Shown here: positions 3,041 to 64,000 of the stretch, piece by piece
How the letters are laid out: every line of letters starts with the position of its first letter
Position numbering within the stretch: position 1 is the stretch's first letter
Assembly (NCBI GenBank): GCA_038248345.1
Contig: JBBRXO010000006.1
Coordinates: 10-64,009 of the forward strand
DNA length: 64,000 nt
Direction of reading: 5' to 3'
From: Armatimonadota bacterium
Lineage (GTDB): Bacteria; Armatimonadota; Hebobacteria; CAIYQO01
Translations under genes and position numbers: made by a program
The notes under the pieces: generated by a model
The model's input: the letters and a program-made list of their open reading frames with translations, nothing else
Databases searched by the model: none
Told to the model about the DNA's origin: nothing

Positions 3041-3121
3041 GCTACTAACATAGCCTCGGGTGAAGCCCGGAGGCGGCTTTTTTTTCCTTCACCGGGTTTC
3101 GCCCGGGGCTATGTTAGTAGC
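3041..3121. repeat. long imperfect palindrome (about 30-bp arms, 21-nt T-rich loop) between the convergent phosphatase and scpA genes; probable bidirectional terminator or structured element
   Basis: gctactaacatagcctcgggtgaagcccgg ... ccgggtttcgcccggggctatgttagtagc. Confidence 0.5.
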
Positions 3122-4145: not shown

Positions 4146-4295
4146 GTCGTAGCATGGGCGTCCCGCCCATGAACAGAACAATTAGTGTCCGAGTATAATG
4201 AAAGAATCGTAGCATGGGCGTATCGCCCATGAGTCGGGGTCTTCATGAAATGCTGATGAGAATGAACTTCTCATGGGCGGGACGCCCATGCTTCG
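4146..4295. repeat. REP family B cluster (3 copies of CGTAGCATGGGCG-N-CGCCCATGA, the last inverted)
   Basis: Each unit is itself a palindrome (CATGGGCG.CGCCCATG). Lies in the scpA / 4325 divergent intergenic region. Confidence 0.7.
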
Positions 4296-17990: not shown

Positions 17991-18035
17991 AGGTTCAATA
18001 TTCAACGTTCAATAGGGACGGGCAAAGGGTCTTCC

Positions 18036-18056
18036 TTGGAACTTGAAACTTGAAAC
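18036..18056 (+). promoter_or_regulatory. tandem heptanucleotide tract (TTGGAAC)(TTGAAAC)2 directly upstream of the DUF721 gene ATG
   Basis: Seen in sequence. Ends 6 nt before the ATG. Inverted GTTCAA hexamers at 17993-18012. Confidence 0.6.
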
Positions 18057-18062
18057 TAAATT

Positions 18063-20733: not shown

Positions 20734-20746
20734 AGGGCCTGCGTAC

Positions 20747-20782
20747 CCTGGGAGCGCCAATCTCCAGATTGGCGCTCCCAGG
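20747..20782. terminator. bidirectional terminator: perfect 17-bp-arm palindrome between convergent kimA and pepA
   Basis: cctgggagcgccaatct-cc-agattggcgctcccagg. Confidence 0.7.
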
Positions 20783-38412: not shown

Positions 38413-38545
38413 CGCCCCATGAATGGGACTTTACCGGGGGAAACAAGCCCCATTCATGGGGCGCATTACGATAGCCCCGTCCTTCAGGGCGGGGAATGGG
38501 GCAGACGGACTTAAACACTCTAAATCAGCCTTGGAACTTGAAACT
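38413..38545 (+). repeat. dispersed composite repeat (family C): 15-bp-stem hairpin, CCCCATTCATGGGGCGCA core, CCCCGTCCTTCAGGGCGGGG hairpin, AACACTCTAAATCAGCC, then TTGGAAC heptads
   Basis: Sub-segments recur at 54450-54515 (inverted; about 27-bp and 20-bp matches) and 63082-63114 (27/33 match). Confidence 0.65.
38531..38544 (+). promoter_or_regulatory. tandem heptanucleotide tract (TTGGAAC)(TTGAAAC) upstream of a 22-codon small ORF
   Basis: Seen in sequence. Confidence 0.55.
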
Positions 38546-44306: not shown

Positions 44307-45791
44307 TTACTCCTTCTGTCCGCTTAGGAACTGGCCCCAGTGGGTATCTTTGGCGAAGTCTAGCAGGTTGTAATAGGGGCCGTTGGTTAGATGATTGAAG
44401 GATAGTCCGTTAGGCACGTATATGCTGATGCCATGCGACTTTGTGTGGTAGGTGCCGGTGGCGTTTGTTATTACGACATTGTTTACCGCAGTTTTTACAG
44501 CTGTAGCGGCAGTTTTGGCACCGTTATTTTGCACGTTCAGCGATATCTGGTCGGCGTAGTCATATAGGTCTTTGTATTCGGTATAAGACGGGCTACCAAA
44601 AAATTCAGCGTTATTACGAGCGGTTTTCAGCGCGGGCGCTTCCGCGGTCGAAATCCCCTGCAAGGCAACAGCGAGGCTATCCACGGCGACGGCCAGCTGT
44701 GGTAGTTTCGCCATTTCTACCACCGAGTGGGTGAGGAGCGTCTCGTATGAGGGATAATATTGTACCGTCTGCTGGGCGATGGCAGTGGCGAAATCGCGCG
44801 GAGCCATCGCCGGATTATTGGCGAGGGAGGTGAGCCAAGTATTGTAGAGATACCCTGCCCCCGGCACATTCTCCTCGGACGCAACTAAATAGTTACAGTT
44901 GTTGCGTATCTGGTATCCCACCTCAAGCATCTGCATAAGACAGGCATCCATAGCGACGATATCCAACGGCGGATTGGAGGCCAACCCCAGGGGGAGATCC
45001 TTGCCGGAGATACTGCTGCCGTATTCATCGTCCCAGGAGATCGCACGCGGTTGCGCCATTACAGGAGTAGCCAGTGTGCGTGCACGCCAGCCAGTGCCGT
45101 GATCCCACAGCACTACCATATAATGCTCGGCCGGGAAGGTACTTTTACCCCAGGAGATGAAGTCGGCCAATTCGGCCGCTGAACCCATATTGCGCGAACC
45201 AAGATCATCTACTACTGGTGAAGTGGTAAAAGAGGTAACTGTACTGGGGTCATTATCATGAACAATAGTAAAGCGCTTGGTGCCCACCCATGTGCCCGCC
45301 GCAGCCGGCCTGCTACTGGCAAGGCGCCCTAGCTCAACTGCTACAGTTACTTGCGGGTTGTCTGGCGCCATCTCCATTTGATTCAAATTGTCGACGCTAT
45401 AGGTTTCCAAATTATTCTTGGCATTGAGAAAAACGAGGATTGTCCATTTACGCGCTACCGCTGTCAGTATGACGTCAGACGGGGTTGCCGTAACATCTGT
45501 TACTACACTCACCTGTATGGTTTTAGCGGAGAAACCGTTTGTGGTGATGAGTAGAGTATGTACGCCCACCGGAACGTTTTTGAGGGTGTAGCTACCGTCA
45601 CTAGCCGTAAGCGAGCTAATCGTCGTCCCCTGCACACTCACCAGTGCCTGCGAGATGGGCACCCTTCCAACGATATTCAACACTTTACCAGTAACGCTGC
45701 CAGTGTCAGGACCGACAGGGCCACCACAACCGGCAATCACCAGCAGCAGTAATAAACATAGCGCCAAGCCAACTGTATATATGAAACGCAT
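44307..45791 (-). CDS. clostripain-family (C11) cysteine peptidase lipoprotein with N-terminal CarbopepD_reg-like domain
   Basis: Lipobox LVIAGC; WDHGTGW (catalytic His region) and AMDACLMQ (catalytic Cys region). Confidence 0.72.
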   Translation of the reverse strand: MRFIYTVGLALCLLLLLVIAGCGGPVGPDTGSVTGKVLNIVGRVPISQALVSVQGTTISSLTASDGSYTLKNVPVGVHTLLITTNGFSAKTIQVSVVTDVTATPSDVILTAVARKWTILVFLNAKNNLETYSVDNLNQMEMAPDNPQVTVAVELGRLASSRPAAAGTWVGTKRFTIVHDNDPSTVTSFTTSPVVDDLGSRNMGSAAELADFISWGKSTFPAEHYMVVLWDHGTGWRARTLATPVMAQPRAISWDDEYGSSISGKDLPLGLASNPPLDIVAMDACLMQMLEVGYQIRNNCNYLVASEENVPGAGYLYNTWLTSLANNPAMAPRDFATAIAQQTVQYYPSYETLLTHSVVEMAKLPQLAVAVDSLAVALQGISTAEAPALKTARNNAEFFGSPSYTEYKDLYDYADQISLNVQNNGAKTAATAVKTAVNNVVITNATGTYHTKSHGISIYVPNGLSFNHLTNGPYYNLLDFAKDTHWGQFLSGQKE

Positions 45792-45856
45792 TTTTATCCT
45801 TTGATGGGAAAGTACCTATTTACTCATACCCACTTGCATATAATTATACACCATTT

Positions 45857-46723
45857 TCACCGCAAACGTGATACCTGCGTCACCCAATCCTCCCGCTCAT
45901 AGCGCGCCAGCACTTCATGTCCGCCGACTTCCAATGCTGTGCGTATCTCAGCCTCCTGGCTGGTGATATAGCCGCTGGATATAAAGAGCGCATCTTTGGC
46001 CATGATACGCGGAAGCAGCGGAATCAGGCGCAATACTACCGGTGCGAGGATATTTGCCAGCACCAGATCGTAGGGGGCGTCGACGCCCGCTTCCAGATCG
46101 GAAACACGGAAGTCGATCTGCTCGGCGACGCCGTTGACCGCAGCATTCTCGCACGCCACGCGCACCGCCAGGTCGTCATTGTCGGTAGCGGTGACGCTGC
46201 CCGCGTCCAGCTTCACCGCGGCGATGGCGAGGATACCGCTGCCAGTGCCAATATCCGCCACGCGCATCCCCGGTTGCAGATATTCCGACAGCGCTTGCAG
46301 GCAGGTGAAGGTGGTGCCGTGGGTACCGGTGCCAAAGGCCATGCCGGGATCGAGGGTAATGATCTGCTGCCCCGGTTGCGGGGTGAATTCCTCCCAGCTA
46401 GGTACCACCGCCAGCCGGGGTGATACCTCAAAGGGAGAGAAGAATTGCTTCCACCCCTCCAGCCAATCCTGATCTTCCATACTGCTGAGTACGTAGGCGG
46501 GAACCTCCGGGATGAGGCCGAACTCCGCCAGCTTCGCCAATGTCGTATCGGTATCCGCCGTCACTTCGTCGGCATGGGCATCCTTCCAGAAGCCGCGCAC
46601 ACACCAGCCATCGCGCACACGCCACTCGGCGGAGGCGCCATCTGCCCCACCCGCGCGCAACGTCTCCGCCGCCACCTCGCACAGCTCTTCCTCCAACGGG
46701 AATTCTACTACGTACCAGGGCAT
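45857..46723 (-). CDS. prmA: ribosomal protein L11 methyltransferase
   Basis: 288 aa. VADIGTGSGILAIAA SAM motif and PrmA N-terminal domain. Confidence 0.85.
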   Translation of the reverse strand: MPWYVVEFPLEEELCEVAAETLRAGGADGASAEWRVRDGWCVRGFWKDAHADEVTADTDTTLAKLAEFGLIPEVPAYVLSSMEDQDWLEGWKQFFSPFEVSPRLAVVPSWEEFTPQPGQQIITLDPGMAFGTGTHGTTFTCLQALSEYLQPGMRVADIGTGSGILAIAAVKLDAGSVTATDNDDLAVRVACENAAVNGVAEQIDFRVSDLEAGVDAPYDLVLANILAPVVLRLIPLLPRIMAKDALFISSGYITSQEAEIRTALEVGGHEVLARYEREDWVTQVSRLR

Positions 46724-46885
46724 AATTTCATCCTTTTGTATTTGACATATGGAAGATACATCTGTACCATATCTACGTTATCGGTAATAATTATTACCGA
46801 TAACTGCCAATACCTGTCATATTTATTAACGATTTTGGCCATTATCTGTAATAATTATGACATATAATGGCATTATTAGGGAGAG

Positions 46886-46950
46886 TTACAATAACGCGCC
46901 ACGGCGGGCGGAATCAATAGTTATAACGCGCCACGGCGGGCGCGGGCTAC
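46886..46950 (-). repeat. REP family A cluster (2 copies, inverted relative to the right-hand cluster), left flank of RAYT
   Basis: aacgcgccacggcgggcgg ... aacgcgccacggcgggcgcgggctacag. The reverse complement of CTGTAGCCCGCGCCCGCCGTGGCGCG contains the restored RAYT stop codon. Confidence 0.8.
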
Positions 46951-47473
46951 AGAATTGAATCTACGATAGCTGAATATGGATACTGTTGCCAATCCTCCAC
47001 GATTCCTTTTCGCACTGGATTTTTCAAAATATAATTTATCGTTTCGTTGATTTCACCGTCATGTCGCAGGGCATGATCATAAAACTACGTTGCCAGAGTT
47101 TTCCACTACCACCATGCTTCCACCATATCTGGGATGTCGTATACGATTTAAAATCCTCTATAGCAGTCAGTACATTTTCTATCGTTCCACCGACTGCTCC
47201 CATATTACGATATTCAGTTATCGTCTCACGAATCTGCACTAGGAAATGCAGGTGATCTGGCATCAAACAATAGCAAAGAAGGTAAAATTCATGCTTTTTA
47301 CGACGCCACAACAACGATTCAATTACGCCATTTGCTATCTCATCATTTAAAAATGGCTTCTGATGCTGACTGGCATTGATTGTAAAGAAAAATTCTGTAC
47401 CACTATATGTATACTGCTCAACAGACAAGCGATGTCGCTTGGTAATAATACGGCCATCATTACGATCGTTCAA
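46944..47473 (-). pseudogene. REP-associated tyrosine transposase (RAYT / TnpA_REP, IS200-like HuH), interrupted by a -1 frameshift
   Basis: ORF 47036-47473 carries the HuH motif YCLMPDHLHFLV and WQRSF. The expected C-terminus (FYDHALRHDGEINETINYILKNPVRKGIVEDWQQYPYSAI) continues in another frame. One extra T in the minus-strand T4 run (plus strand AAAA near 47081-47084) would restore it. The restored ORF ends with TAG inside the REP at 46944. Flanked by inverted REP clusters. Confidence 0.75.
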
Positions 47474-47519
47474 ATATTCGATCTATTCATCGTAACTCAT
47501 ACTACCCTCGACAAAAGAC

Positions 47520-47612
47520 ATCTGTAGCCCGCGCCCGCCGTGGCGCGTATTCGTAACCCGCGCCCGCCGTGGCGCGAATCTGTAACCCGCGCCTGCTGTG
47601 GCGCGCATTTGT
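47520..47612 (+). repeat. REP family A cluster (3 tandem copies at 29-bp period), right flank of RAYT (BIME-like)
   Basis: ctGTAGCCCGCGCCCGCCGTGGCGCGta / ttcGTAACCCGCGCCCGCCGTGGCGCGaa / tctGTAACCCGCGCCTGCTGTGGCGCGca. 5-nt linkers are too short for CRISPR spacers. Confidence 0.8.
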
Positions 47613-47623
47613 TTTTTAATGGA

Positions 47624-50600
47624 TTATATCGTTGTTATCCCCACTACAATCTCCTCGCCTCCCAACTCTACCGTCGCGTTATAAACTTCGGCGGGGACAG
47701 TGTCGAAGTTCACGACATCAGACAGCGTCTCGGCCATCAAATAGGCTAGGTTATCCGCGATTGCGGTCGCTAATTCCTCGGATAACTGCAATGTCAGCGT
47801 TATATGATCGCTGATCTGGAGCGCGGCGTCTTTGCGCGCGTCCTGCACGGCGCGCACCAGGTCGCGTGCCAACCCTTCGCGGCGCAGCTCCTCGGTGATC
47901 TCGGTATTCAGCGCCACCACGTAGCCGCCGTCTTCTGCCACGGCGAAACCTTCGGGAGAAGAGGTCTCGATGAGAATCTCTTCACCGGTGAACTGCATCA
48001 CCTCTCCGGCGACAGTCAACGGGAAGCTCTCGCCGGCTTTGGATGCGGCCACCATCGCTTGCGCGGTCGGCTGGTCAATAAGCAGCAAAGCCTCTTTCAT
48101 GGCCGGCACCAGCTTGCCATATTTGCGCCCTACCACCGGCAAGTTCGGCTTGAAGTTGTACTTCACCAGCCCGCTCTCGCCATCGAGGAAACGTACATCC
48201 TTCACGTTCAGCTCATCACGCAATACTTCGATAAACTGCGCCAGACTCGCTTTCTCGGCATCGCCGGGCACGTGTACCAGCAGCTCTGCCAGTGGCTGGC
48301 GAATCTTCCAGCCGGATTCGGCACGTGCGGAGCGGCCCAGCTCTACTGTCTTCAACAGCACCGACATGTCGGTGTCCAGTTGCGTGTCGAGCAGACTCGC
48401 ATCCACCACCGGCCATGCGGCCAGGTGGACGCTCTCCGCCTCCCCCTGCCCGTCGGTCAAGTTTCGATAGATCTCCTCGCTGATGAACGGCGCAAACGGC
48501 GCGGTCAATTTCGCTACCGTGAGCAAGCAGGTGTAGAGCGTATAATAAGCCGCCTGTTTGTCGGCGTCCGCCTCGCTCTTCCAGAAACGACGGCGATTGC
48601 GGCGCAGATACCAGTTGGAGAGCAGGTCGACGAACTCCTCCACCGCGCGGCCCGCCTCGGTGACGCGGTAATGCTCCAGGTGCTCGGTCACTTCGCCGAT
48701 AACCAGCTGCAGCCGTGACAGCGCCCATTTGTCGATCTTCGCCAGTTCCATCGGCATCTCGCCCGGCGTCCAGCCGTCCAGATTAGCATAGGTAACGCAG
48801 AAGCTGTAGGTATTCCACAGCGTCAGGAGGAATTTGCGCACCGACTCCGCCACCAGCAACCCGCTGAATCGACGCGGATTCCCCGGCGTGGTGCAGGTGA
48901 AGAGATACCAGCGTAGGGCGTCAACACCATGCGCATCGATGATCTCCCACGGGTCGATCACATTCCCCTTGGACTTCGACATTTTGAAGCCCTTTTCATC
49001 GAGGATGTGCCCAAGGCAGATGACGTTTTTGAACGCTGGTTCGCCGGTAAGCAAAGTAGAAAGCGCATGCAAGCTGTAGAACCACCCGCGTGTCTGGTCC
49101 ACCGCTTCGGAGATGAAATCTGCCTGGCGCACGTGATGCTCGTCCACCCACTGCTTGTTTTCAAAGGGATAATGCCACTGCGAAACCGGCATGGCACCGC
49201 TATCGAACCAGGCGTCGAGTACCTCGGGCAAGCGGCGCATTTCACCGCCACACTTGCTGCACGGCCAGGTCACTTCGTCTATATATGGGCGGTGCAGATC
49301 CAGCTCGGTGCAATCGCGTCCCGCTTTAGTGCTCAATTCGGCCACGCTGCCGATACATTCCTGCTGCCCACAGGCACATTCCCAGATAGGCAGTGGTGTG
49401 CCCCAGTAGCGCTCGCGGCTGATGGCCCAGTCGATGTTGTTCTCCAGCCAGTTACCGAAGCGCCCGTTTTTGATATGCTCCGGCTGCCAGGTGATCTCCT
49501 GGTTCCCGCTGATGAGTCGGTCTTTCACTGCAGTAGTACGGATATACCAGCTGGTTTTGGCGTAAAAGAGCAGCGCGGTGCTGCAGCGCCAGCAGAACGG
49601 GTAGGTGTGCTTGGTGCGCGCGGACTTGAACATCAAGTTGCGGTTCTTCAATTCGCGGATGATATGCGAATCTGCATCCTTGAAGAAGCGCGTCTCGAAC
49701 TGCGCCAGCTCCGGCAGCATCTTCCCCTGCAGGTCCACCGAGAAGAGCGTGGGCAGCCCGTGCCGTCGCCCGATCTCCAGGTCACCATAGGCAGGGGCGA
49801 TATGCACGATACCGGTGCCGTCGCCCAGGCTCACGTAGTCATCGGCAACTACGGTGTAGGCTTTGGACATATCGGTGGCCACACCTACACCCGGCACGCC
49901 GGGGTAGAGGTTCTCATAGACGATACCGGCCAGCTCTGCACCGGTGAAGCGGCGAATAATCGTCGCTTCCTCGCCGAGGTTAGCGGTCATCAACGCTTCT
50001 GCCAGCACAAAGGTCTCTTCGCCCAGTTGCGCAGCCACGTAGTCGCCCCCGGGCTTCACCGCCACCGCCACATTGGCGGGCAGCGTCCACGGGGTAGTTG
50101 TCCAGGCGAGGAAATATACATCGCCGGCCAGCCCCGCCAGCGGGGCGGGCAGCTGCCCGTCTACGCGTGCTACCTTGAATTTCGGCCAGATGCTCGGATC
50201 TTCAGTGTCATCCTTGTAACCCTGCGCCACTTCATGGTCGCTTAGGGTGGTGACACAGCGCGGGCAGTGCATATTCACCTTGTAGTCGCGATAGAGCAGC
50301 CCGCGATCCCACAGGTTCTTCAGAATCCACCAGTTGCTCTCCAGATACTCATTTTTGTAGGTGATGTACGGGTTTTCCAGATCGATCCAGTAACCGATGC
50401 GATCGGTCATCTTCTCCCATTCCTGTACGTAGCGAAAGACGCTGCCTTTGCATTTCTCATTGAAGGGGGCGATGCCGTACTGCTCGATGTCGTGCTTGCC
50501 TTCCAGCTTCAATTCGCGCTCAATCTCCAGCTCCACCGGCAATCCCTGGGTATCCCAGCCGCCGCGTGCTCCGATGATATGGAAGCCATTCATGCGCTTG

Positions 50601-50812
50601 TAGCGCAGCATGATATCCTTAAAAGCGCGCGCGAGCACGTGGTGCACACCGGGGCGGCCATTGGCAGTGGGAGGGCCTTCAAAGAAGATGAAATCCGGGC
50701 CATCCTCGGTGCCACTCATGGCGCGGCGCGGCACATCGGCCTCACGCCACCAGGCGAGAACCTCTTCTTCTAATTTCGGGAACGATACCTGTGAAGCTAC
50801 ACTACGAAACAC
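47624..50812 (-). CDS. ileS: isoleucine--tRNA ligase (type 2)
   Basis: 1062 aa. PTANGRPGVHHV HIGH region, KMSKS (FKMSKSKGN). GTG start with AAGGAG RBS. Confidence 0.95.
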   Translation of the reverse strand: MFRSVASQVSFPKLEEEVLAWWREADVPRRAMSGTEDGPDFIFFEGPPTANGRPGVHHVLARAFKDIMLRYKRMNGFHIIGARGGWDTQGLPVELEIERELKLEGKHDIEQYGIAPFNEKCKGSVFRYVQEWEKMTDRIGYWIDLENPYITYKNEYLESNWWILKNLWDRGLLYRDYKVNMHCPRCVTTLSDHEVAQGYKDDTEDPSIWPKFKVARVDGQLPAPLAGLAGDVYFLAWTTTPWTLPANVAVAVKPGGDYVAAQLGEETFVLAEALMTANLGEEATIIRRFTGAELAGIVYENLYPGVPGVGVATDMSKAYTVVADDYVSLGDGTGIVHIAPAYGDLEIGRRHGLPTLFSVDLQGKMLPELAQFETRFFKDADSHIIRELKNRNLMFKSARTKHTYPFCWRCSTALLFYAKTSWYIRTTAVKDRLISGNQEITWQPEHIKNGRFGNWLENNIDWAISRERYWGTPLPIWECACGQQECIGSVAELSTKAGRDCTELDLHRPYIDEVTWPCSKCGGEMRRLPEVLDAWFDSGAMPVSQWHYPFENKQWVDEHHVRQADFISEAVDQTRGWFYSLHALSTLLTGEPAFKNVICLGHILDEKGFKMSKSKGNVIDPWEIIDAHGVDALRWYLFTCTTPGNPRRFSGLLVAESVRKFLLTLWNTYSFCVTYANLDGWTPGEMPMELAKIDKWALSRLQLVIGEVTEHLEHYRVTEAGRAVEEFVDLLSNWYLRRNRRRFWKSEADADKQAAYYTLYTCLLTVAKLTAPFAPFISEEIYRNLTDGQGEAESVHLAAWPVVDASLLDTQLDTDMSVLLKTVELGRSARAESGWKIRQPLAELLVHVPGDAEKASLAQFIEVLRDELNVKDVRFLDGESGLVKYNFKPNLPVVGRKYGKLVPAMKEALLLIDQPTAQAMVAASKAGESFPLTVAGEVMQFTGEEILIETSSPEGFAVAEDGGYVVALNTEITEELRREGLARDLVRAVQDARKDAALQISDHITLTLQLSEELATAIADNLAYLMAETLSDVVNFDTVPAEVYNATVELGGEEIVVGITTI

Positions 50813-51103
50813 TGTGGCACTCCTTAATGAGAAAAGAGTTAGCAGTTAGTTTGATTGCTAACTACTAACCCTGCTGAAAAATCTGATCTGTTATTTTTTT
50901 CCAATTCCACCACGAAGTGGTGGTGGAATATAGCCCAGGGCGTAAGCCTTGGGATTGATTTTATCTATATTGCATCTCACCCCGAAGGGGTGACGGAAGA
51001 GTAGTCCACCACCACTTCGGGGTGGAATTAAAACTAAACTCTCTGACCCGGCGCTTACGCACCGGGCTATATTCCACCACCACTTTGTGGTGATATTCAA
51101 TGA
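50813..51103 (-). promoter_or_regulatory. highly structured 291-nt ileS 5' leader with attenuator-like terminator; candidate T-box-type or novel riboswitch, or an inserted MITE
   Basis: About 45-bp inverted repeat (50908-50960 vs 51040-51093). Several C(UUCG)G-loop hairpins on the transcribed strand (from ccaccacGAAGtggtggtgg, tcaccccGAAGgggtga). Hairpin GUUAGUAGUUAGC..CUAACUGCUAAC followed by UCUUUUCUC about 15 nt before the AAGGAG RBS. Confidence 0.5.
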
Positions 51104-54449: not shown

Positions 54450-54515
54450 ATAGTTCCAAGGCTGATTTAGAGTGTTCAAGCCCGTTAGCCTAATTCCCCG
54501 CCCTGAAGGACGGGG
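54450..54515 (-). repeat. family C repeat copy (inverted) in the copZ / peptidase intergenic region
   Basis: agttccaaggctgatttagagtgtt and ccccgccctgaaggacgggg are reverse complements of the segments at 38474-38545. Confidence 0.65.
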
Positions 54516-54600
54516 AGTAGAGATAATCGTCAACAAATTTTTATCCCCAAATAATGAAGCTCACTTCATTACTGATTCCTCGTATGAACATTTTTTTAAC

Positions 54601-54621
54601 TTGGAACTTGGAACTTGGAAC
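54601..54621 (+). promoter_or_regulatory. tandem heptanucleotide tract (TTGGAAC)3, 18 nt upstream of the peptidase MA-like gene
   Basis: Seen in sequence; followed by TAATGTCGTTATACTAGC and the ATG. Confidence 0.6.
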
Positions 54622-54639
54622 TAATGTCGTTATACTAGC

Positions 54640-61767: not shown

Positions 61768-61860
61768 ATCTCTCGAAGGAGTAAACGATGAAATTATTGT
61801 GGGATAAAAAGCTGACAGCGGAGCATCCCTTATCCACATCATTTATACCGGGGGTATGGT

Positions 61861-61895
61861 TTGGAACTTGGAACTTGGAAATTGGAACTTGGAAC
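61861..61895 (+). promoter_or_regulatory. tandem heptanucleotide tract (TTGGAAC)2(TTGGAAA)(TTGGAAC)2, 20 nt upstream of galT
   Basis: Seen in sequence; followed by TAATCATC, the GAAGGAG RBS and the ATG. Confidence 0.6.
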
Positions 61896-61915
61896 TAATC
61901 ATCGAAGGAGTTAAC

Positions 61916-62965: not shown

Positions 62966-63003
62966 TATGGACGTCCCCGTAGCATGGGAGCCTGCCCATG
63001 AGA
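62961..63003 (+). repeat. REP family B-like copy downstream of galT
   Basis: cgtagtatggacgtccccgtagcatgggagcctgcccatgag shares the GTAGCATGGG...GCCCATGAG frame. Confidence 0.55.
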
Positions 63004-63081
63004 ACGAGGTCGCAATTCCAGGATTATTTTTTCAACACAGAGATCACAGAGAAGATGAACGGGGCATGTTTCCCCGTTGAA

Positions 63082-63134
63082 ACCCCATTTATGGGGCGCA
63101 TGACGCTAACCCCGGCATTTATGCCGGGGTTAGC
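63082..63134 (+). repeat. family C repeat copy plus 14-bp-stem hairpin downstream of galT
   Basis: accccatttatggggcgcatgacgctaaccccg, then perfect hairpin gctaaccccggcat-tt-atgccggggttagc. Confidence 0.6.
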
Positions 63135-63434: not shown

Positions 63435-64000
63435 ATGCGTAGAATAATCGGGAAATGGGCTATTTGCCTTTCTATATTGATGTCGATGTCAGCGCTGGCA
63501 ATTGCGCAAGATGCGGCAACTGATCCTGGTGGATTGGATGTGGTAACCACCGGACCGGCCATCACTGTGCCGGATCTGGCAGGATCCAATGTTGATATCA
63601 TCGATCCAGTCGCAGCTGGATCGGCGGTAACTGATGATGAAACCACCGCTACCGCACCAGCAGCTGATCTTAAATTCGGCATCATTAAAGTAAGCTATGC
63701 CGATTTAAGTAGCATTACTGCTGCTCTCGGGGGCACCATGTTGCCATTAGATACCGGCAGCAGCCTCAGCAATGGCTCATCAAATTATCCAACTGGCTAC
63801 CGTTCATCGTACAACAACCAGGGAAACTATTACCCCACATCCTACAACAATGGGTACAACAACAACAACAACAACAACGGCTACAACAACAACAACAATG
63901 GATACAACAACAACAACGGGTATACGAACAATGGGTACAATAACAACAACGGGTACAACAACAACAATGGATACAATAACAATAATGGGTATACGAACAA
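63435..64000 (+). CDS. secreted protein with Asn/Tyr/Gly-rich low-complexity repeats (partial, runs off window)
   Basis: ATG after GAGGAGAG RBS. Signal peptide MRRIIGKWAICLSILMSMSALAIAQ. From about 63780 the DNA is a degenerate 15-21 nt tandem repeat encoding (N)3-5GY units. Confidence 0.5.
   Translation, partial: MRRIIGKWAICLSILMSMSALAIAQDAATDPGGLDVVTTGPAITVPDLAGSNVDIIDPVAAGSAVTDDETTATAPAADLKFGIIKVSYADLSSITAALGGTMLPLDTGSSLSNGSSNYPTGYRSSYNNQGNYYPTSYNNGYNNNNNNNGYNNNNNGYNNNNGYTNNGYNNNNGYNNNNGYNNNNGYTN

Follow-up and report, generated by a model that had tools for sequence, protein, structure and literature searches.

A probable small REPtron in an Armatimonadota genome, with a RAYT gene that is broken as written

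What is the short reading frame that lies on the minus strand between ileS and prmA in an Armatimonadota genome (assembly GCA_038248345.1, contig JBBRXO010000006.1), does it still encode an enzyme, and how is it connected with the repeats on either side of it? A sequence-only reading of the 64-kb stretch that was analyzed, here called the window, had described positions 46880-47615 as a REP-associated tyrosine transposase (RAYT) gene with a homopolymer frameshift, flanked by inverted clusters of repetitive extragenic palindromes (REPs). That description was confirmed overall, and its interpretation is supported with corrections. We conclude that the locus is probably a small REPtron, that is, a RAYT/TnpA_REP gene lying between copies of its own REP hairpin. 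Judged from its sequence, the gene belongs to the class 2 HUH-Y1 single-strand DNA nuclease/ligases and is broken in this genome as written, and it should be annotated as a RAYT pseudogene.

The longest open reading frame (ORF) of the unrepaired sequence had been reported to contain an HUH motif and WQRSF, and both its sequence and its coordinates were correct. The ORF bears the HUH motif YCLMPDHLHFLV plus WQRSF, and downstream of it the protein continues in another frame as FYDHALRHDGEINETINYILKNPVRKGIVEDWQQYPYSAIVDSIL, followed by a stop. The ATG of the ancestral coding sequence (CDS) occupies 47500-47498, with GAGGG just 5′ of it. The reading frames and the lesions are as follows.

46947..47500, minus strand (47500→46947): ancestral RAYT (TnpA_REP-like) CDS, 184 codons after repair, now with two lesions
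47036..47473, minus strand: longest ORF in the unrepaired sequence, 145 aa, TTG start, HUH motif present and catalytic Tyr absent
47081..47084, minus strand (AAAA on the plus strand): T4 run with one base missing, which puts YILKNP with the catalytic Tyr out of frame
47483..47485, minus strand: in-frame TAG at codon 6 of the ancestral CDS, in a conserved hydrophobic column of homologue N-termini

The frame-corrected protein scored 101.8 bits on the NCBIfam model NF047646, "REP-associated tyrosine transposase" (REP_Tyr_transpos; cut-off, 80), and 32.8 bits on Pfam Y1_Tnp (PF01797; cut-off, 23). The earlier assignment to the Y1 HuH transposases therefore held when that model was run, and it narrowed to the RAYT family. 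By contrast, the IS200 model NF033573 gave 18.2 bits, under its cut-off of 55. When a profile of the clade was compared with solved structures, Escherichia coli TnpA_REP (4ER8) came first (E=5e-14, 55.7 bits) and IS200/IS605 transposases ranked below it. The window protein was aligned with 21 homologues (22 sequences) and retained all invariant columns, namely the HUH histidines H90 and H92, W-Q-x-S, and Y164-x3-N168; PDHLHFLV (HUH) and YILKNP (Tyr) were both present in invariant columns. Y-x3-NP is the signature of class 2 TnpA_REP proteins, as against Y-x3-Q for IS200 (Quentin et al., PMC6006769). The window protein thus combines HUH with a single catalytic Tyr in Y-x3-NP, and it does not belong to class 1 (IS200/IS605), as it has YILKNP instead of Y-x3-Q and scored below the NF033573 cut-off. 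The motifs DHLH, WQ and Y[IV]L[NK]NP exactly matched no single row of Table 1 of PMC6006769.

The closest proteins were just 45-57% identical to the window protein, with none above 57% among 5.8 billion clusters. Several homologues carry a RayT annotation, and one (P0008) comes from a metagenome-assembled genome (MAG) named Armatimonadota. No second RAYT copy was found within the window and no near-identical protein among the 5.8 billion, and viral contigs, where a phage vector was sought, yielded no relative.

The two lesions distinguish this gene from its intact homologues. One added T in the T4 run, as the sequence-only reading had proposed, gave ...WQRSFYDHALR..., in which the junction WQRSFYDH is the same as in the intact homologues P0030 and P0109, and this single-base repair recovered 45 conserved C-terminal residues. 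The deletion is located at about codon 147 of the ancestral CDS; because the catalytic Tyr is 3′ of the frameshift, the ORF as written cannot yield an active enzyme. Moreover, the alignment with the N-termini of intact homologues extends 17 codons 5′ of the TTG start, and the TAG falls among these codons. The segment across the TAG added 10.5 bits against a profile built from 15 homologues with the window protein left out, a gain matched by only 1 of 500 shuffles. The TAG closes the original frame after five codons, and the 1-nt deletion parts the HUH half from the catalytic Tyr, such that no single uninterrupted frame linking HUH and Tyr is present in the window gene.

The missing T could instead be a homopolymer sequencing or assembly error, in which case the RAYT would be intact in the organism and initiation at the TTG (47473), past the TAG, would yield a functional 175-aa enzyme. 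Such an enzyme would fit with the retention of all invariant and nearly invariant residues and with the recovery of 45 conserved C-terminal residues by one base, and the homologues P0022, P0027 and P0030 are likewise without the N-terminal segment. At four bases, however, the T run is short for an error of this kind. The 39 remaining long ORFs of the window look unbroken, and IleRS, PrmA and an S1-domain protein aligned end to end with their orthologues in relatives; a random assembly indel in this one gene is therefore unlikely. Further, significant homology to intact N-termini extends across the TAG, upstream of which there is an ATG with a GAGGG Shine-Dalgarno sequence, whereas by eye no Shine-Dalgarno sequence was evident 5′ of the TTG. 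Exact-protein look-ups with the 145-aa ORF and with IleRS gave no match. An exact look-up with PrmA gave one 1.4-kb Logan contig (L001) that corresponds to window 45499-46955 with six single-nucleotide differences, but it ends just beyond the left REP and is therefore uninformative on the frameshift. We consider an intact gene unlikely.

A programmed frameshift would be another way to keep the enzyme, either by a −1 ribosomal slip on U_UUU_A or by polymerase stutter, which would produce low levels of full-length protein as in the IS1 and IS3 transposases. In support of a slip, tRNA-Phe could re-pair one base back on UUUU. The X_XXY_YYZ heptamer is absent, however, the 96 nt that comprise the T run and about 80 nt downstream fold worse than shuffles (z=+1.13), and each of the 21 aligned homologues has its coding sequence in a single frame. 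A run of T4 length is also far too short for transcriptional slippage. With neither a slippery heptamer nor a downstream structure, programmed frameshifting was rejected as highly improbable. The sequence-only reading had left three explanations of the T run side by side: decay, sequencing error and programmed slip. Decay is favored because there is a second lesion, the TAG at codon 6, which that reading had not listed, because slippery heptamer and downstream structure are missing, and because the homologues are all single-frame.

The broken gene is flanked by copies of one REP hairpin, the arrangement that defines a REPtron. The copies in the window are as follows.

47524..47547, plus strand: REP R1, GTAGCCCGCGCCCGCCGTGGCGCG, GTAG foot; inner arm of a 28-nt perfect inverted repeat (47521-47548)
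47553..47576, plus strand: REP R2, GTAA foot
47582..47605, plus strand: REP R3, GTAA foot and two loop changes (CTGCTG)
46927..46950, minus strand: REP L2, full copy, GTAG foot; the other inverted-repeat arm (46926-46953), its TAG (46949-46947) being the stop of the repaired RAYT
46895..46911, minus strand: REP L1, 5′-degenerate copy without a foot and with a 4-bp stem; orthologous to the lone REP at the corresponding site of a sister MAG (contig L030)
1321..1344, plus strand: dispersed REP away from the RAYT gene, GTAG foot; its TAG (1322-1324) is the stop codon of Nramp/MntH

The window thus holds five full copies and one degenerate remnant (L1). The innermost copies around the gene form an inverted repeat, 46926-46953 and 47521-47548, that is complementary at 28 of 28 positions, and a spacer of only 20 nt (47501-47520) separates its right arm from the RAYT ATG. 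At the other end, the stop codon of the repaired gene (46949-46947) is the TAG of the GTAG of L2. On the right, the upstream side of the gene, three copies form a direct tandem array with a 29-nt period; on the downstream side, one full and one partial copy are spaced at 32 nt and run in the opposite orientation to the upstream array. The earlier count of three tandem copies on the right and two on the left was therefore correct, with the left pair being one full and one 5′-degenerate copy, and so was the opposite orientation of the clusters around the gene. The accompanying label of bacterial interspersed mosaic element (BIME) was wrong: a BIME in the E. coli sense consists of alternating inverted pairs of two types, but each cluster here is a direct array, and the two flank the gene in inverted orientation, which makes a REPtron. 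Apart from the pair around the RAYT gene, the window contains no doublets of this REP (REP-A). The copy at the end of mntH was where it had been reported, and the ORF that encodes Nramp/MntH (62-1324) ends with the TAG of its GTAG. No mntH gene is present on any of the loci of relatives that were compared.

Each full copy folds into a 6-bp CGCGCC/GGCGCG stem with a 6-nt loop (CGCCGT; CTGCTG in R3), at about −7.8 kcal/mol as DNA. The 6-bp stem claimed for every copy thus holds for the full ones, but L1 has only 4 bp, and a 5′ GTAG, also ascribed to all copies, occurs in just three of the six, with GTAA in two and no foot in one. The 15-nt core of the REP occurs five times exactly in the window; at up to three mismatches it had 16 matches, compared with 5.1 +/- 2.4 in shuffled sequence, and none of 100 shuffles reached 16. 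The fold energy of a single hairpin was not significant by itself, at z -1.4 to -2.7 versus shuffles for such short GC-rich sequences, and the case for structure therefore comes from the comparison of loci, which vary in the stem and keep the loop. No known RNA family covered the REP region, where only sub-threshold eukaryotic models matched, and a promoter and terminator scan was uninformative in the AT-rich stretch.

Other hairpins with a GTAG foot are present in the window. A second family (GTAGGGGCACAAGGCTTGTGCCC, 8-bp stem) forms an inverted doublet, 1357-1381 on the plus strand and 1429-1453 on the minus strand, right after the REP at the mntH end, and may be the partner of another RAYT elsewhere in the genome. 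A third (GTAGCATGGGCGTCCCGCCCATG) was found at 4149-4171, 4209-4231 and 62979-63000 on the plus strand and at 4271-4295 on the minus strand. In total, the window has eight perfect hairpins with a GTAG foot, which exceeds the number for every permuted foot (0-6).

Comparison of the clade provides good evidence that the functional features are the hairpin, the foot and the loop; the stem sequence appears free to co-vary. In all seven intact homologues examined, GTAG-footed hairpins adjoin the RAYT gene. Around these genes the stems vary (CGCGCC, GCGCGCC, GGGAACGCT, GGAACGAA, GGGCGCGTT, GCGCGGA and GGCACGTT), and all of them enclose the hexaloop CGCCGT. Of 197 CGCCGT sites in the homologue loci, 16 were enclosed by perfect stems of 5 bp or more, versus 6 of 6146 sites for permuted loops; 15 of the 16 hairpins were no more than 450 nt from the RAYT gene, and 14 had a GTAG or GTAA foot. 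The arrangement differs by locus: the window and L026 have copies in opposite orientation around the gene, and in L034 each side carries a direct array. The use of the TAG within a REP's GTAG as the RAYT stop codon is found in L029 as well as in the window. P0011 and P0241 (loci L029 and L032), which are the closest two RAYT homologues, are both followed by the same gene for a DAO-type FAD oxidoreductase, and the shared neighbor indicates that the RAYT locus has descended vertically in that branch.

L029 4440-6256: RAYT and DAO-type FAD oxidoreductase neighborhood
L032 10001-11798: RAYT and DAO-type FAD oxidoreductase neighborhood

The REP also occurs beyond the window. A scan for GTARCCCGCGCCNGCNGTGGCGCG in 185,579 species genomes (GTDB collection), a set that does not include the source genome, returned seven loci. 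True copies were present only in a sister Armatimonadota MAG, on contigs L005 and L007, where they pair with variant copies in inverted doublets. The remaining five loci (in Frankia, a member of the Planctomycetota, two Gemmatimonadales and Hydrogenophaga, at 66-76% GC) were judged, without formal proof, to be chance or coding coincidences because of genome composition and because they had no other repeats in common with the window. A metagenome scan gave 16 loci, and one sample, Ga0194063, had 12 exact copies on nine contigs, which share further small repeats with the window. The motif is thus not confined to the two loci of the window; such confinement was the outcome that the sequence-only reading had named as speaking against a dispersed REP. 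The identical 24-mer occurs in genomes whose ileS genes are just 88-92% identical, which fits an actively homogenized repeat family. A search of the REP-bearing loci for RAYT genes found none in any of them. REP copies account for breaks between contigs of related MAGs: among the assemblies examined, L001 terminated in a REP, L030 of the sister MAG stopped about 230 nt beyond one, and several RAYT homologues were on contigs of about 1 kb.

Short REP doublets were found in L005, L007 and L023. In four Ga0194063 contigs, moreover, two inverted REP-A copies bound a conserved element of about 187 nt that folds as one long hairpin (−69.6 kcal/mol, z=-9.6), with invariant ends and a mean column identity of 87%. 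This REP-A composite element, with a conserved core and a central hairpin, was located as follows.

L015 3329-3514: composite element
L017 2077-2262: composite element
L018 1877-2063: composite element
L021 4052-4237: composite element

By the usage of Bertels and Rainey the element would count as a REPIN; it also resembles a miniature inverted-repeat transposable element, and it is absent from the window.

Several side observations concern the same contigs. REP-A copies lie at the edges of accessory-looking genes of 43% GC in L013 and L021 of Ga0194063, a population otherwise at 54-59% GC; these genes encode a 1273-aa helicase-like protein and zinc-ribbon membrane proteins. Upstream of ileS in the window, a hairpin repeat (50908-50953, minus strand) matched Acido-Lenti-1 (RF01687; 41.3 bits, cut-off 37), with related copies at 50894-50947, 51002-51038 and 51053-51097. 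The motif is also found in L015, L017, L018 and L021, 14-500 nt from the composite element in all four Ga0194063 loci, and it acts here like a dispersed repeat, not like a single small-RNA gene. A 36-nt palindromic repeat (CCCTGGGAGCGCCAATCTCCAGATTGGCGCTCCCAGG) at window 20746-20781 recurs at L005 389-424 and 1240-1268 and at L007 ~960-990, with 92-93% identity between the window and the sister Armatimonadota MAG, where REP-A doublets adjoin it.

How did a RAYT gene come to lie between ileS and prmA? The host had been described as Firmicutes/Chloroflexi-like, which was wrong, as IleRS identities place the window in the Armatimonadota. IleRS (47624-50812) is 98% identical to the protein of GCA_038215455.1 (MAG "Armatimonadota bacterium Co_metawrap_1616"), 96% identical to that of GCA_037140675.1, 70-76% identical to those of other Armatimonadota MAGs and about 58% identical to those of Chloroflexota. 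In L031, the ileS gene of which has 88.5% nucleotide identity to that of the window, ileS and prmA are 4 nt apart with no AT-rich spacer, REP or RAYT, and the whole of 46737-47636 is absent. In L030 (ileS, 92% nucleotide identity), the spacer comprises an unrelated stretch of about 113 nt that bears another kind of hairpin repeat, then one REP that is orthologous to L1, and then the AT-rich region upstream of prmA; the RAYT gene is absent from this interval.

46912..47623, no strand: window-only segment (three-copy array, gene and full left copy), absent from the ileS-prmA interval of L030

The composition of the gene is also foreign. Its GC content at third codon positions (GC3) is 0.36, compared with 0.65 +/- 0.08 (minimum, 0.46) for 39 window genes and 0.60-0.72 for the homologues, and among the 600-nt bins of the window, the one with this gene has the lowest GC. 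The encoded protein is the most divergent and most AT-shifted of the clade (FYMINK, 0.32; GARP, 0.17). Composition favors recent arrival. Long-term pseudogene decay was considered as the source of the low GC and was rejected because all invariant residues survive. Absence from L030 and L031 and a GC3 of 0.36 versus 0.65 are not what single-copy, stable vertical inheritance at one locus would give. Given that the gene is missing in two close relatives and is compositionally foreign, we conclude that it is probably a variable, recently arrived cassette that is starting to decay, with REP copies that persist in this genome and in relatives.

This account, and with it the reading of the gene as broken, has to be held against the following points. 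The T4 versus T5 call rests on the assembly, and an assembly indel could have produced it. Every invariant residue is kept, so either inactivation was very recent or the frameshift is an artifact. If the TTG at 47473 is the start, the TAG costs only about nine residues, and some homologues are without that N-terminal segment. Of the REP copies in the 64 kb, only one is remote from the gene, and exact matches to the pattern in the sister MAG are confined to two contigs (plus variants), such that the REP family may have few copies in this lineage. Parsimony is neutral between gain in the window lineage and loss in L030, at one event each. Lastly, the REPs that bracket this foreign-looking gene are perfect copies of the family resident in the lineage, which simple import of a cassette does not explain.

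One way in which the gene could have arrived is as an autonomous IS200-like insertion sequence with REP ends, a cassette of about 620-680 bp that was transposed or transferred whole into the ileS-prmA spacer. The layout is compact enough, with its 28-nt perfect inverted repeat, 20-nt spacer and stop codon inside a REP; the site is empty of the cassette in two close relatives, one of which offers a clean 4-nt empty site; and the composition is foreign. The protein, however, matches the RAYT model and not the IS200 model and has Y-x3-NP, not Y-x3-Q (PMC6006769), there is neither a second copy in the window nor a near-identical one in 5.8 billion proteins, and REPtrons are reported not to move as units (PMC6006769). 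Further, the L029 and L032 homologues keep the same neighbor gene, which argues for vertical descent in that branch, and deletion in the relatives explains the pattern equally well. An autonomous insertion sequence is improbable. It is similarly doubtful that the REP-gene-REP unit of about 620-680 bp is a self-contained, still-mobile RAYT that entered the ileS-prmA operon whole from a low-GC donor. Were that true, the mobile cassette would represent a living stage intermediate between insertion sequences of the IS200 type and RAYTs that are domesticated and immobile, and the clade would recognize its hairpins by the GTAG foot and the invariant CGCCGT loop, not by stem sequence.

The ileS-prmA interval has further peculiarities. 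An AT-rich spacer, 46725-46880, lies directly upstream of prmA, well under the 54% GC of the window, and has three units with a 32-nt period built on the palindrome TTATCGGTAATAATTATTACCGATAA (46778-46803, 46810-46835 and 46842-46867); it has one unit fewer in L030, is absent in L031, and looks like an acquired promoter/operator region that split the ileS-prmA operon. A 30-nt inverted repeat (GCTACTAACATAGCCTCGGGTGAAGCCCGG) surrounds a T run at window 3041-3121, and a similar hairpin at L030 10545-10580 sits in the sister-MAG ileS-prmA spacer in place of the RAYT, which makes the spacer a landing pad for several repeat types.

What would the intact enzyme have done? What the data support directly are the identity of the family, the two lesions, the hairpin repeats together with their co-occurrence with the gene across the clade, and the variable presence of the gene. 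By analogy with E. coli TnpA_REP and IS608 (PMC6006769), an intact enzyme would recognize REPs folded on single-stranded DNA and read the GTAG foot. It would then cut and rejoin the DNA using the Tyr of Y-x3-NP and the metal bound by HUH, and this activity would multiply REPs and REP doublets, or REPINs. The copy in this genome would no longer be able to do so.

The window holds other repeats. A double-hairpin repeat of 50-64 nt (AAGCCCCATTCATGGGGCGCATTACGATAGCCCCGTCCTTCAGGGCGGGG) occurs at 38445-38538, 54452-54515 and 63080-63129, as well as at 1635-1688 of metagenome contig L023. Short direct repeats of the TTGGAACTTGGAACT type occupy four intergenic places (18028-18057, 38529-38545, 54593-54622 and 61859-61903). 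A tandem repeat with 9-18-nt periods (AACAACAAC...GGNTAC), at 63829-64000, runs off the end of the window and probably encodes a low-complexity protein segment rich in Asn, Gly and Tyr.

The closest parallel among known systems is the REPtron of E. coli K-12. Its TnpA_REP (RayT/YafM; 4ER8) likewise combines HUH with a single Tyr in Y-x3-NP and is the best match of solved structure, its gene is likewise flanked by its own GTAG-footed REPs in opposite orientation, and further REPs lie elsewhere at gene ends. The similarity of the proteins is only remote, however (profile E=5e-14, 55.7 bits), and proteins of the window clade are extended at the N-terminus and carry about 13-17 additional residues behind the HUH strand. 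The REPs here have short, perfect 6-bp stems, a conserved CGCCGT loop and direct tandem arrays, not Y/Z BIME pairs; moreover, the gene is broken, and the host belongs to the Armatimonadota. The RAYT/REPIN system of Pseudomonas fluorescens SBW25 (Bertels and Rainey 2011, PMC3116915; Bertels et al. 2017, PMC5581495) resembles the locus in pairing a RAYT with a cognate REP family, in having inverted REP doublets that form long hairpins, which for this REP occur in related populations, and in the co-variation of RAYT and REP, seen here across the clade of the window. RAYTs of the SBW25 type are described as single-copy, vertically inherited and maintained (PMC3116915, PMC5581495), whereas the RAYT here is variably present in close relatives, compositionally foreign and pseudogenized, and its REP copy number appears low.

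The IS200/IS605 TnpA proteins (IS608, ISDra2; class 1 TnpA_Y1) share the HUH-Y1 fold family, and their elements share a compact size of about 0.6-0.7 kb with hairpins at both ends. The window protein differs from them in having Y-x3-NP instead of Y-x3-Q and in scoring 18.2 against the IS200 cut-off of 55, and its locus differs in being without tnpB and without multiple identical copies in the 64-kb window or the protein collection. The GTAG-tagged REP superfamily (Di Nocera et al. 2013, PMC3733652) shares the short GC-rich stem-loop preceded by an unpaired 5′ GTAG, the location at gene ends and the link to RAYTs. The combination of a constant CGCCGT loop and stems that vary freely appears particular to this clade.

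RAYT/REP systems had been called best known in Proteobacteria by the sequence-only reading, but systems outside that phylum are already documented (PMC3733652, PMC6006769). GTAG REPs with RAYTs are on record in Proteobacteria, Cyanobacteria, Chloroflexi and the Planctomycetes-Verrucomicrobia-Chlamydiae group (PMC3733652), and class 2 TnpA_REP genes are found in about 25% of species, the arrangement of the gene plus its REPs having been named REPtron there and reported not to transpose as a unit (PMC6006769). Armatimonadota are mentioned by neither survey (0 occurrences in PMC3733652; PMC6006769). The locus offers a system in which to ask whether a RAYT gene can be gained together with its repeats and which hairpin features the enzyme reads. 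To the usual picture of RAYT/REP systems as old, single-copy, vertically inherited and mostly proteobacterial, it adds an Armatimonadota case, with less usual features in its series of filled, partial and empty sites, its foreign composition, its very compact layout and its invariant loop.

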